From the IMG/VR virus record IMGVR_UViG_3300040770_000357: 64,000 nt of DNA. One strand, 5' to 3'. Source of the stretch: a virus. The notes below the pieces were generated by a model, which was not told the origin of the DNA, did not search any database, and saw only the letters and a list, made by a program, of their open reading frames with translations. The first letter of the stretch is position 1. Each line of letters begins with the position of its first letter. The translations under genes and the position numbers were made by a program. This document shows positions 6,251 through 14,387 of the stretch, one piece after another.

Positions 6251-7387
6251 ATGAATAATAAAAACATTAAAGCCGACATAGTTGTAGGTTTAGGCTACGG
6301 TGATGAAGGTAAAGGTATTACTACCGATTTTTTGTGTTCAAAATCAGAAAACCCAATTGTTATTAGATATTCTGGTGGTCAGCAAGCTGGTCATACAGTT
6401 ATGTATAATGGCGTAAAACATATCCATTCTAATTTTGGGTCTGGTAGTCTTAGAGGTGTTCCAACATATTTTTCAGAACACACAACCATTTACCCAGTAA
6501 CTATCGCTAGAGAGTTAAAGGTCCTAAAAGGTAAGGGTATTGACCCAGAACTAACAATACATCCATTAGCGATGATTACAACACCTTATGATGTGTATGC
6601 TAATAGAGTTGATGTTGATAATTTAAGTCATGGTACATGTGGTCTTGGTGTTGGTAAAACAATGAAAAGAAATGAAGGGCCATTTAAACTATACGCTATT
6701 GATTTGTTAGACCCTAGTACACTTATGGATAAAGTAAGAAGTATTAGAGAGAACTACTATTGTGGTGTAATAGTTGAAACTAATGAATTTTTAATTGAGC
6801 TTGAAGAATTTCTTGAGGCGATACTTGATTCATCAATCAATTGGAACATTAAAGGTTATAATTATTTATTAAATTACAGTAATTTAATTTTTGAGGGTTC
6901 ACAAGGTATACTATTGGATATGGACCATGGTGTTTTTCCACATGTTACGTATTCCAATACAACATCCAAAAATGCTCATCAAATACTAGATAAAATATCA
7001 GTAACTAACAGGAACATGTATTATATAACTAGGTGTTATAGCACAAGACATGGTTCTGGGCCGTTTATAGAGAATACTGTAACATTAATAAATAATACTG
7101 AGGAAATTAATGTTAATAATGAGTATCAAAAAAACTTTAAGTTAGCTAAATTAAGTTATGTTAGCCTTAACCATGCATTAATGATAGACGATATTTATTC
7201 TAATGGTAAAACGGTTACTAAAAATTTAGTAGTTACGTGTTTAGACCAATTACCATTATTTAAATTAAAAGAGGAATATTTAGAGGTTAAGTTTGATTCA
7301 ATCTACGAATCATATTCACCAGAAAGTAAAGATTATAAACTAAAAACAGAAAAAACATGGGACATTTCTCGCACAATTGCAAACTAA
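6251..7387 (+). CDS. Divergent adenylosuccinate synthetase-like protein
   Basis: GLGYGDEGKG, GGQQAGHT, FEGSQGILLD, TRHGSGPF; no TTGRxRR aspartate loop. Confidence 0.8.
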   Translation: MNNKNIKADIVVGLGYGDEGKGITTDFLCSKSENPIVIRYSGGQQAGHTVMYNGVKHIHSNFGSGSLRGVPTYFSEHTTIYPVTIARELKVLKGKGIDPELTIHPLAMITTPYDVYANRVDVDNLSHGTCGLGVGKTMKRNEGPFKLYAIDLLDPSTLMDKVRSIRENYYCGVIVETNEFLIELEEFLEAILDSSINWNIKGYNYLLNYSNLIFEGSQGILLDMDHGVFPHVTYSNTTSKNAHQILDKISVTNRNMYYITRCYSTRHGSGPFIENTVTLINNTEEINVNNEYQKNFKLAKLSYVSLNHALMIDDIYSNGKTVTKNLVVTCLDQLPLFKLKEEYLEVKFDSIYESYSPESKDYKLKTEKTWDISRTIAN

Positions 7388-8460
7388 GTGGCGTACCGAT
7401 AACTAGTGGTCCAGCAGTGTTAATCGTTATGTTACCTACTGGTAAAATGTACGATAATAGCGATGAAACATTAGTAAAATATGGTAAAACATATATGTGT
7501 TCGAATGATGGGCCAAGAATGAAGTATTCACCATGTTGGTTTCCAATTAAAGGTGATTACGACACATATGGTGGTCTAGAGAACATTATTGAAGATGATA
7601 ATACAAAGGCAATCGAAGAACATTATGGTCTTACAATTCATCAGATTTTAGGTGTTATCACTAGTGGTAGAAAAGATGATGGTTTTGATGATAGTTTAGA
7701 TTGTGTAATCGATAAACGTAAAAGTGACAGAAATAGTCCAATATATTTAAAAAAATATCGTGATTTAATTAAAATGTCTGGTATGTGGGTTCATGGTGGT
7801 GTTTACGCTAAACTATCCGCAAGAAAAGAGGTATATAGTAAATATGGTGGTATTGGTCTAGGTAACCCAGCTATTCTAAAATCGTTAGGATTTAAAGAAA
7901 ACGGTACTACTAGTGGTCGTTTTACCCAAAGGTTCTCAAAAGATGGTTTAATTATTCAATCAGATGGTAATTGGCTTGAGGTAGATGGTTGTAATAATAT
8001 TTATTGCTACTCAGACTTACTTGATTTTTGTGCTGTAAAAGGCGTTGTTATCGATGTTAGTGAGCATATCAAAAAAAGCTACAATGAACAGGTGTATGAT
8101 TATCTACTACCAAAAGTAAAGTCACTTAAGTCTGATATCTTTAGTATGTCGGACCCTAGGGGTGATAGAATGGTAATTGCTAAAACATTGTTGAATTATT
8201 CGGATTATGACATCAAAAATAGTATGACCGCTACTTATTTTGCTAACGCAAAAGAGGGTAAATTAAGAGAAAATATTAGAGAGTTTTGGGAATTTGATTC
8301 ATACATGTATGCTTGTGGTAAATATTATGAGATTGTTGGTACTGGCCCTCAAGATGGTGCACATAGTAGTGTTTTAGAGGTTGTCAATGCCGCTAAAGAA
8401 GTGTTGGAAGATTATATTGGTGAAAGAGAAGGTTATGGTGAAGATGAAGATTATGAATAA
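7357..8460 (+). CDS. Hypothetical protein
   Basis: 367-aa ORF in operon. Confidence 0.75.
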   Translation: MGHFSHNCKLSGVPITSGPAVLIVMLPTGKMYDNSDETLVKYGKTYMCSNDGPRMKYSPCWFPIKGDYDTYGGLENIIEDDNTKAIEEHYGLTIHQILGVITSGRKDDGFDDSLDCVIDKRKSDRNSPIYLKKYRDLIKMSGMWVHGGVYAKLSARKEVYSKYGGIGLGNPAILKSLGFKENGTTSGRFTQRFSKDGLIIQSDGNWLEVDGCNNIYCYSDLLDFCAVKGVVIDVSEHIKKSYNEQVYDYLLPKVKSLKSDIFSMSDPRGDRMVIAKTLLNYSDYDIKNSMTATYFANAKEGKLRENIREFWEFDSYMYACGKYYEIVGTGPQDGAHSSVLEVVNAAKEVLEDYIGEREGYGEDEDYE

Positions 8461-8613
8461 AATATTTGTTTTATTAATAAATTAGTTATATATTTGTATA
8501 ACAAACGCAAGCATGTTGTTTCAACGTGTTATCGGTAGTTTTCGGTACTCACGTAATAGAACCGATGGCAAACAGGGGAAGCGACCAGTGACTAATAGGA
8601 AAGACTAATAATT

Positions 8614-8817
8614 GGGGTTTTGGTGGAATTGGTATACACGGTGGGTTAATGGCCTACTGCACCTCATCACTGAAAAGTTAAAAGGTGTACAACTTTTAAT
8701 TGATAGGTGATGATAGCATACGATAAGGATTTAGGTGGGCACAGTAGGCATACTGATGAGAAGCTTAACTGATAAGGATTTGTGAAAAGCGTGGGGGTTC
8801 GAGTCCCTCATTCCCTA
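8614..8817 (+). ncRNA. tRNA-like RNA with large structured internal insert
   Basis: Leu-like D arm TGGTGGAATTGGTATACAC, T arm GGGGG-TTCGAGT-CCCTC, imperfect acceptor GGGGTTT/ATTCCCT, ~130 extra nt. Confidence 0.6.
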
Positions 8818-9055
8818 CAATTCACGTCAGCTGTGGCTTTTAGTATCTAGAGGCTCTTTGATAAACATTGAGGTGTTTACAGGTAAAAAACTAGCGGTTC
8901 GGAATTTTAACTCAAATATTTGTCATTGGCCCGAAGTCTTTCTAAACATTTAGGTGTTGTAGGTACTGGTCAGATTAGGATAAGTCAATGATAATCAAAT
9001 GTATGTTTAAGGAAAGAAATTTTTAAGTTTGTGACTAATAGGAAAGACTATTAAT

Positions 9056-9164
9056 GGAAGTGTAGCTCAGTCGGTAGAGCAGATTGCCAATAATGGTTTG
9101 AAAGACCAACCTACGTAAAGTAGGTGTAACAGTCGGGTCGTTGGTTCGAACCCAACCATTTCCA
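9056..9164 (+). tRNA. Atypical tRNA with 43-nt anticodon loop (identity undetermined)
   Basis: Good acceptor, D and T arms; stem GATTG/CAGTC encloses two extra hairpins. Confidence 0.7.
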
Positions 9165-9201: not shown

Positions 9202-9693
9202 ATGAAAAAAGAGATAGTAGTAAAGTGTTACGATAAATTCAATCAGCTTTTAAAAGAGGATGATTACGTTGATGTTCAAAAAGATGGTGTACAGCAAATT
9301 TACAAAAAAGAAGATGGGCAACTCTACTTCAAACCTTATGGAGAAGAAGATAGAGTAAGTGCTTATTTCTCAAACGATATTTGTAAGTGTGATGAAGTTG
9401 GAAATTGGATAACTGATGACCGTTATGAAGATATAAAACAAGAAACACTTGAAGAATTTGCTGAAAGACTTTGCCCTAATAAGGAAGTTGAATATGATAT
9501 GATTATTGAGGGTGCTAAATGGCAACAAGCGAGAAGCTATAGTGAGAAAGATATGCTAGCAACATTTCATTACGGACATCAACTTGGTATGAACTCAGTA
9601 TTAGCAATACAATCTCAACATTCACCTCAACCAATTGATAAACCTAATTTAGAAGTTTTAAAAAAGGAATGGTTTGGACAATTTAAGAAGTAA
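9202..9693 (+). CDS. Hypothetical protein (ETLEE...GAKWQQ...WFxQFKK family)
   Basis: C-terminal motifs shared with 10005-10745. Confidence 0.7.
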   Translation: MKKEIVVKCYDKFNQLLKEDDYVDVQKDGVQQIYKKEDGQLYFKPYGEEDRVSAYFSNDICKCDEVGNWITDDRYEDIKQETLEEFAERLCPNKEVEYDMIIEGAKWQQARSYSEKDMLATFHYGHQLGMNSVLAIQSQHSPQPIDKPNLEVLKKEWFGQFKK

Positions 9694-11036: not shown

Positions 11037-11872
11037 GAAATAAAGGAAGTGAAAACTTAATTTAAAATAATAGGGTGCTTATACTCTATAGGATAAACTC
11101 AGCAATGAGGATAAAGCAGAAATGCGTTGGCGATTCCCAATCCACGTAAGCAAATTAAACACGGTTCATGTGTTAAACCTAAGAAACATCTGTTGGAAGG
11201 TTTGTGTGTGAATTATCTACCTTAGTTGAATTCTTTGGGTAGGTTGAGTATGAAAGTACAATAGAAACCCTCGCTGGTGAAGTTTAATAGAAATCGGTGA
11301 ATAACTGTAAAAAGGGAATAAGCTGAAATCATTCTGGATTCTTACGGATAAAGTGAAAACCTAAGTAAGAGAAATGAACATACTGTAAAAGGTATATCGA
11401 GGTGTCGTTGGATAATCTACCCAAAAAGTAGTACGCCATACAATCTGTGAACACATCTTGAATTGAGAGTTTAACGCTATCGGCTGCGTAAGCCAATTTT
11501 TTATTGAAAAAAAAAAGACAGCAAAAGTTTCACAGAACTTGATTTGAAAAATGAGTTATACTGTTGTAATATACAGTTGTGTTAGTAGGCCGCAAGCCAA
11601 ATACATAAAATAAAGTGAGTATTTCTAAGCCAACAGCCAGCCAGCTGCTAACCTCGCAAGGGGGTCGAAAGAAAATAGAGTTTATATAGAGTCGAGTAGT
11701 GATTGCAGAATCGTAAAATCTGTCTCATTGTTAACTATCCTTGGAAACATGGATGTGTGTTATAGGTGAAAACCTTAAAAATGTTAACTCTAATGCTGAA
11801 CACTCAAGCATATAGTAAAATAGGGAGTAGTATGTAAGCTACGGTAGAGGTTGAAGTCCTTGTATTCCCACT
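11037..11872 (+). ncRNA. Large ornate structured RNA, GOLLD-like candidate
   Basis: ~830 nt ORF-free tract after a promoter, many GNRA-capped hairpins, next to tRNA array; family assignment unverified. Confidence 0.65.
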
Positions 11873-14314: not shown

Positions 14315-14387
14315 TGTTGAGTAGATTAATTGGCAAACGTCCTACGCTATAGTAGGAAGATGTGGTGTTCAAATCCCACCTCAACAG
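14315..14387 (+). pseudogene. Gln-like tRNA body with 6-nt anticodon loop
   Basis: TGTTGAG/CTCAACA, G73; CCTAC-GCTATA-GTAGG. Confidence 0.55.

Follow-up and report, generated by a model that had tools for sequence, protein, structure and literature searches.

A GUGAC/GAAAGA RNA hairpin of DNA and RNA phages recurs just 5' of tRNA-shaped genes

The window analysed here is a stretch of 64,000 nucleotides of viral DNA (IMG/VR record IMGVR_UViG_3300040770_000357). Behind the stop codon of ORF 7357-8460 lies a promoter candidate of the Bacteroidota type on the + strand (8465-8496), recognised from the sequence by TTTG, a 20-nt spacer and TATATTTG, with a predicted start near 8503. The consensus for Bacteroidota promoters was used for this assignment, and the candidate is supported by its -33 box and by its location behind the ORF; TAnnTTTG by itself is frequent, with 85 occurrences on the + strand of the window. 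All further elements of the locus are on the same strand. A putative 5' leader or spacer RNA (8503-8587) is predicted to form a single long hairpin at about 8527-8569, the fold of 8503-8613 having a z value of -1.6. It is followed by the first copy of the short hairpin that is the subject of this study (8588-8610; stem 8593-8598/8605-8610 with one A.A mismatch, loop 8599-8604) and by a first tRNA shell (8614-8817), whose +1 lies 8 nt past the loop-closing C. This shell has a Leu-type D arm, a T arm, five of seven acceptor pairs and about 130 nt of additional structure; it encodes no CCA and is called neither by ARAGORN nor by Rfam. A putative spacer RNA (8818-9030), with a predicted long imperfect hairpin at about 8935-9017, separates it from the second copy (9031-9053; perfect 6-bp stem 9036-9041/9048-9053, loop 9042-9047, z -4.1). 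The second shell (9056-9164) starts 7 nt past the loop-closing C of that copy. Its acceptor, D and T arms are intact and two hairpins expand its anticodon loop; Rfam scores it as a tRNA (45.9 bits) with a large insertion in the anticodon region, and ARAGORN makes no call. Compared with canonical tRNAs, neither shell has the 7-nt anticodon loop with its 5-bp stem, nor a normal variable arm. A 163-aa ORF with no Pfam or PHROG match comes next (9202-9693), probably on the same transcript as the shells, no terminator-like site being found on the + strand.

Two further candidates at this locus were rejected. A TAAGTTTG box overlapping the second copy (9024) has no -33 partner and is frequent by chance, and a possible hammerhead in the first shell (8745-8788) contains the core words CTGATGAG and GAAA, while the required stems are missing by inspection. 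The first shell also contains GATAAGGATTT twice, at about 8727 and 8770.

The earlier note on this DNA had described an identical 20-nt leader 5-6 nt before both aberrant tRNA-like genes. Its exact copies (8588-8607 and 9031-9050) and its gaps (6 nt to the body at 8614, 5 nt to the body at 9056) stand, but not its unit boundaries nor the meaning given to two upstream complements: the real unit is a hairpin that extends about 3 nt past the 20-mer. The two copies are the only ones in the window, even allowing three mismatches, for a chance expectation of 0.01, and a covariance model run over the 64 kb finds the same two. The normal tRNAs of the window, at 12.2-14.8 kb, do lack the leader as had been stated, and none of the 11 tRNAs called by ARAGORN in the window is preceded by a GUGAC/GAAAGA hairpin. 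Other odd tRNA bodies of the window lack it as well, for example that at 14315-14387, which is matched by Rfam and missed by ARAGORN.

Elsewhere in the window, about 830 nt without an ORF (11037-11872) are rich in hairpins and end in a tRNA-like acceptor/T-arm piece; this segment looks GOLLD-like by eye, with no Rfam match up to E 10 and no GUGAC/GAAAGA hairpin. Two hairpins, at 11518 and 14405, are opened by ACAGCAA or TCAGCAA. The same word is found at four other loci, in the inserts of hairpin-led shells directly 5' of a gene for a DUF2828/DUF7788 RNA-binding protein; this protein is encoded close to seven hairpin loci and has no homologue in the window. The gene at 6251-7387 belongs to the PurA/PurZ family (phrog_1211), and a pattern search of IMG/VR gave no close relative of it. 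No close relative of the phage itself was found through this PurA-like neighbour or by DNA comparison.

The hairpin is about 23 nt long and consists of an unpaired GUGAC, a stem of 5-6 bp of free sequence and a GAAAGA loop closed by a G-C pair. In the window, the second copy has the stem TAATAG/CTATTA, and the first is identical save for its one mismatch. We evaluated the structure in an unselected IMG/VR sample of 114 distinct matches to the pattern GTGACA-N3-6-GGAAAGAC. At least four stem pairs were present in 49 of these, against 9.6 (maximum 20) when the 3' arms were permuted. Long ORFs contain 10 of the 49 stem-bearing copies vs 45 of the 65 stemless matches. Among 25 copies picked for having a stem, 97.6% of stem cells are paired, with 48 double-sided changes. 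About 40 different stem sequences were seen, with G-U outnumbering C-A by 12 to 4, and an A comes next after the stem in 80% of copies. The flank also occurs as UUGAC or CUGAC and the loop as GAGAGA, GAAUAGA or GAUAGA; the pattern scans held GTGAC and GGAAAGAC fixed, so that the invariance of both words is partly built in. The hairpin is an autonomous, free-standing RNA module, independent of upstream sequence.

This independence bears on the proposal that a larger conserved fold has the 20-mer as its 3' closing strand, paired with upstream TAGTTTT or AGTCTTTC. Both partial complements exist. TAGTTTT (8536-8542) can form seven pairs including G-U, a value reached by 16% of shuffles, and AGTCTTTCT (8935-8943) can form nine pairs with the second copy, reached by 2-3% of shuffles, which is the point in favour of the larger fold. 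Across 115 other copies, such complements are as rare as in shuffles (2% vs 2%), and both complements of the window are predicted to lie inside other helices: the first within the long leader hairpin, the second within the long imperfect hairpin of the spacer, where it would pair with another GGAAAGA (9003-9017). The local stem, in contrast, covaries. The copies have 142 unrelated upstream families without a common element; in the 150 nt upstream of 226 copies from these families, no common word was found save tRNA T arms, and this region shows no folding excess over controls. We consider the larger fold extremely improbable.

Viral and cellular genomes were searched for the hairpin. Phages of many bacterial phyla have it in their non-coding regions, among them phages of Vibrio, Pseudomonas, Ralstonia, Erwinia, Rhodobacter, Bacillus, Gordonia, Bacteroides and Cellulophaga, of crAss phages and of others, including the cultured Bacteroides phage BS-TP2, Bacillus phage BC-5, Erwinia phage phiEt88 and Vibrio phages. 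In BS-TP2 (PQ571275, about 19525), it stands together with a tRNA shell. The majority of the genomes seen have one or two copies; in crAssphage cr272_1, Bacillus phage BC-5 and two further loci, several copies lie within a few hundred bases. For one stem class, only 39 matches were found in 185,579 cellular genomes, spread over about ten phyla, and eight of ten genes adjoining copies in cellular genomes match phage or mobile-element families. None of 300 sampled Bacteroidota genomes has the hairpin before a tRNA. Three Collinsella matches were discarded as chance matches inside ORFs. A degenerate copy with a GCGAC flank and a bulged stem occurs in tailed viruses of Halorubrum (L233, 2995-3024; L234, about 1997-2025), in a 5' UTR about 35 nt before a gene; it is doubtful that it is a true member. 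No linked protein was found for the hairpin, the best family (CI-like HTH and HNH) occurring in 18 of 221 loci. The hairpin appears to be uncatalogued, as no Rfam family or paper was found: Rfam 15 gave no match, at gathering thresholds or up to E 10, over either copy of the window, nor over copies in 18 other loci, a literature search that included the motif letters found no description, and the main text of Fremin et al. 2023 (PMC10690425), a study of 10,006 models of candidate viral RNAs, does not mention it.

The hairpin is also present in some ssRNA leviphages. In NC_073863, a copy in the 3' UTR shares 22 identical nucleotides with DNA-phage copies. NC_073994, of another genus (55% identity), has a 3' UTR copy with a different stem and 19 nt identical to DNA-phage copies, and NC_073865 has a variant copy at the same 3' UTR place, again with a different stem. 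The GAAAGA hairpin occupies that place in Andhaxevirus and Manohtivirus. NC_073994 and NC_073865 belong to a set of ten relatives picked on replicase similarity only. Seven other related leviphage records lack the motif or end before it; in three Sholavirus records, a hairpin with the loop UGAAAU or UGGAAU, then UGGAGG, stands at the matching place. The covariance model was built on 25 copies and scores the leviphage and Halorubrum copies only weakly (E 0.2-10); the leviphage claim is based on exact identity and position. Since these genomes code for four or five proteins and exist at no stage as DNA, the element would act at the RNA level, and scarcely by way of a dedicated phage protein or of RNA polymerase. 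Leviphage copies with different stems likewise argue for an action as RNA through a host factor.

In DNA phages, the hairpin is coupled to tRNA 5' ends. In IMG/VR, 67 loci have it 10-24 nt before a TAGCTCAR D arm and five have it at 25-54 nt; the close loci place it 7-11 nt before the tRNA +1. A further 63 loci have it before a TGGYGGAA D arm, with the +1 at 8-9 nt past the loop-closing C in 35 of 42. It was found 3' of a tRNA, within about 30 nt, in only 19 loci, where the distance is variable and a second tRNA mostly comes next. A tRNA-shaped RNA stands behind 12 of 48 unselected viral copies vs none of 65 stemless controls, behind 8 of 34 copies in cellular genomes and behind 7 of 16 exact 20-mers; some of these bodies lack the D arm or the anticodon arm. 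A start codon lies 17-67 nt downstream in 16 of the 34 cellular-genome copies. The hairpin is thus genuinely and directionally coupled to tRNA 5' ends, but this applies to about a quarter of its copies. Two other arrangements were noticed at these loci. At eight of them, a conserved A/C-rich spacer of 28 nt between a tRNA shell and the hairpin would form with it a candidate small RNA of about 55 nt between two tRNA bodies. In several AT-rich phages (five loci), a tmRNA gene is followed at about 130 nt by the exact 20-mer, which stands behind a conserved segment starting with CCTTA(C/T)AAACCTT.

The earlier note had read the leader as a mark that directs aberrant tRNAs into a dedicated maturation pathway. 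That interpretation holds in so far as the RNA element is conserved, is associated with tRNA 5' ends and leans towards shells; the tag for aberrant tRNAs does not hold. The lean is seen in complete IMG/VR bodies with a Leu-type D arm, 31 of 83 of which are shells: the motif stands at 4 of the 31 shells and at none of the 52 canonical Leu tRNAs (P=0.017). This sample was chosen by the D arm only, and host clade confounds the comparison. Motif-led TGGYGGAA bodies are non-canonical shells with an insert of 10-200 nt in 41 of 42 cases; their motif-less neighbours are shells too (25 of 29), and the within-locus difference is not significant (P=0.15). Against a dedicated pathway, 24 of 40 motif-led TAGCTCAR bodies are canonical, a share no different from that of motif-less neighbours (P=0.27), and the exact 20-mer also precedes a canonical tRNA-Gln as well as start codons. 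Copies independent of tRNAs were looked for and are common, three quarters of the unselected copies having no tRNA behind them. Nor do shells require the motif, since 87% of them lack it. The motif leans towards shells and is neither needed by nor confined to them. The alternative wording of a processing signal or protein-binding site is plausible. As to the shells themselves, AT-rich phages (including many of the loci L254-L429) carry a large family in which the acceptor, the Leu-type D arm and the T arm are fixed and enclose a hypervariable insert of 10-200 nt, with up to six different members per locus. In L011 (about 420-580, - strand), a motif-led tRNA has in its anticodon loop an insert of about 85 nt that resembles a small tRNA ending in CCA, and similar insert-in-anticodon-loop tRNAs occur at six other loci.

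We tentatively favour, at somewhat less than even confidence, a model in which the spacer RNA upstream, once cut by RNase P, ends 3' in the hairpin, which is bound by a protein and protects that RNA. The 5' ends of tRNAs are made by RNase P (PMC10879173). Phages would insert the hairpin where a non-coding stretch gives way to the next functional unit. At this locus, RNA transcribed from the promoter candidate would be cleaved twice by host RNase P, at 8614 and at 9056; each time the hairpin, with a tail of 2-5 nt, would become the 3' end of the RNA upstream. Besides the two shells, this would yield two hairpin-ended spacer RNAs, one of about 110 nt and one of about 235 nt. The tRNA or shell would serve as a cutting site that needs acceptor and T arms and no anticodon, which would explain the lean to non-decoding shells and even to bodies without a D arm. 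The hairpin would protect or hold the spacer RNA, and its reader would most likely be a widely conserved host RNA-binding protein or RNase, so that no adjacent phage gene would be needed. Several observations stand against this model. The upstream stretches are no more folded than controls, and many may thus not be RNAs worth protecting; the copies in 5' UTRs, 17-67 nt before a start codon, show no evident cut 3' of the hairpin; where no tRNA follows the hairpin, terminator-like sites show no excess either (6 of 74 vs 3 of 58); the seven leviphage records mentioned above lack the motif or end before it; and the short spacing may be no more than a consequence of compact tRNA arrays.

A broader proposal, possible though doubtful, is that the hairpin is one RNA handle for one conserved host factor, shared by tailed DNA phages of at least ten bacterial phyla, leviphages and perhaps haloarchaeal viruses, missing from host tRNA genes, and stamped on RNA ends by means of shells as disposable RNase P sites. 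If true, this would give a function to part of the large family of anticodon-less phage tRNAs, with a new host target of phage RNA. An element of 23 nt that reaches from Bacteroidota jumbo phages to RNA phages points to an undescribed, shared host-side interaction. It offers a possible reason why phages retain many non-decoding tRNA-shaped genes, and the hairpin could be used as a portable RNA-stabilising or processing part.

The hairpin could instead act forward, recruiting a helper or nuclease to release or stabilise whatever unit follows on its 3' side, be it a tRNA, a shell or an mRNA, which is the idea of the earlier note minus its restriction to aberrant tRNAs. The tight coupling to the tRNA +1, the copies in 5' UTRs and the enrichment before shells, on which RNase P may act poorly, all suit such a signal. 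We nevertheless hold it to be unlikely, since most shells and most phage tRNAs do without the hairpin even inside one array, a spacing variation of 4-5 nt is too loose for a ruler, and the leviphage 3' UTR copies have nothing downstream to mature. The strict polarity 5' of tRNAs would in turn be needless for a decoy, in which abundant copies released as spacer RNAs of 30-230 nt titrate a host RNA-binding or defence protein. This role would fit the restriction to phages without a linked gene, the clusters of copies within a few hundred bases in some phages and the inter-tRNA spacers that are barely more than the motif (L449); with one or two copies in most genomes seen, it is distinctly unlikely. 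An antitermination or pause-suppression signal of the nut-boxB or put kind, helping RNA polymerase through the next structured unit, is rather improbable. Its GNRA-like purine loop, its location just before structured RNAs and its presence in early leaders and in the late leader behind the Q gene of phiEt88 speak for it, but the loop has six bases and a G-C closure, unlike the boxB pentaloop, no boxA-like word lies upstream, no N-like family was found linked at the 221 loci, and the element is kept in ssRNA phages, which do without host RNA polymerase.

Two readings retain very little probability. A self-cleaving ribozyme, or part of one, cutting near the tRNA 5' end as a mirror of theta ribozymes at 3' ends would agree with the fixed place beside tRNAs, the invariant unpaired bases and the want of a partner gene; a single hairpin of 23 nt without a second conserved element, without an Rfam ribozyme match up to E 10 and at a varying distance to +1 makes it very improbable. 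Slighter still is the chance that the hairpin mimics segments of the 23S rRNA peptidyl-transferase centre and decoys an rRNA-recognising enzyme. GGAAAGAC does occur in 23S rRNA, in the A2058 region (PMC12116650), and GAGACAGTTCGG, also in 23S rRNA, equals the 5' half of the NC_073865 copy. The match was noticed after the fact, however, an 8-mer would turn up in rRNA about 7% of the time, the stem positions needed for the rRNA match vary freely, and the Erm substrate differs in loop and closing pairs.

Among described systems, theta ribozymes are minimal HDV-like ribozymes at the 3' ends of phage tRNAs, common in phages of Bacteroidota and Bacillota (PMC10879173). Like them, the hairpin is a small phage RNA at a fixed short distance from tRNA genes, and the role proposed for theta ribozymes is the processing of tRNA precursors (PMC10879173). 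They cleave no more than 5 nt from the 3' end of the tRNA, whereas the hairpin lies on its 5' side. The theta/HDV-like fold is a double pseudoknot with a catalytic C, whereas ours is one hairpin without pseudoknots or Rfam ribozyme match, spans many more hosts and occurs also away from tRNAs. The boxB hairpins of lambda and P22 nut sites and the put RNAs of HK022 are short hairpins in phage leaders, and they resemble the hairpin in size, location in leaders and purine-rich GNRA-like loop. Against the five-base GNRA-like loop of boxB, the hairpin has six bases (GAAAGA), G-C closed, with an invariant 5' GUGAC and a free stem. Unlike at nut sites, only tRNA T-arm words are enriched in the 150 nt upstream across the 142 families, with no boxA. 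A search for an N-like gene found no protein family shared by more than 18 of the 221 loci, in loci of up to 15 kb where short divergent basic proteins may escape BLAST clustering. With the Erm substrate (23S rRNA helix 73, AAAGACC loop, two G-C closing pairs), the hairpin has the 8-mer alone in common. CsrA/RsmA proteins bind a consensus with GGA exposed in an A(N)GGA loop; in the hairpin, by contrast, the first G of GGA is part of the closing pair of the stem and is preceded by a stem base of free sequence.

The nearest described kind to the shells of the window is that of RNA C and RNA D of T4, phage stable RNAs of unknown function (PMC9697503), which are likewise non-decoding stable RNAs in phage tRNA regions. 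The shells show no similarity past the tRNA arms in the phage collection, and no such leader is described in PMC9697503. The leviphage copies sit among 3' UTR hairpins, as do the hairpins U1, U2 and V of the leviphage 3' domain (PMC3561173). Their loop differs from that of U1, a 3'-terminal helix with a UGCUU-type loop. Analogies are also offered by the 3' stem-loop of histone mRNAs, by the MALAT1 triple helix with mascRNA and by the E. coli tRNA-spacer RNA 3'ETS-leuZ. These have no sequence relation to the hairpin and belong to other organisms or domains of life. The likeness lies, respectively, in a 5' flank, stem, conserved loop and short tail read by a protein, in a tRNA-like RNase P site, and in an RNA freed from a tRNA precursor. 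If the RNase P model holds, the hairpin would act like these known end-protecting or tRNA-flanking RNA elements.
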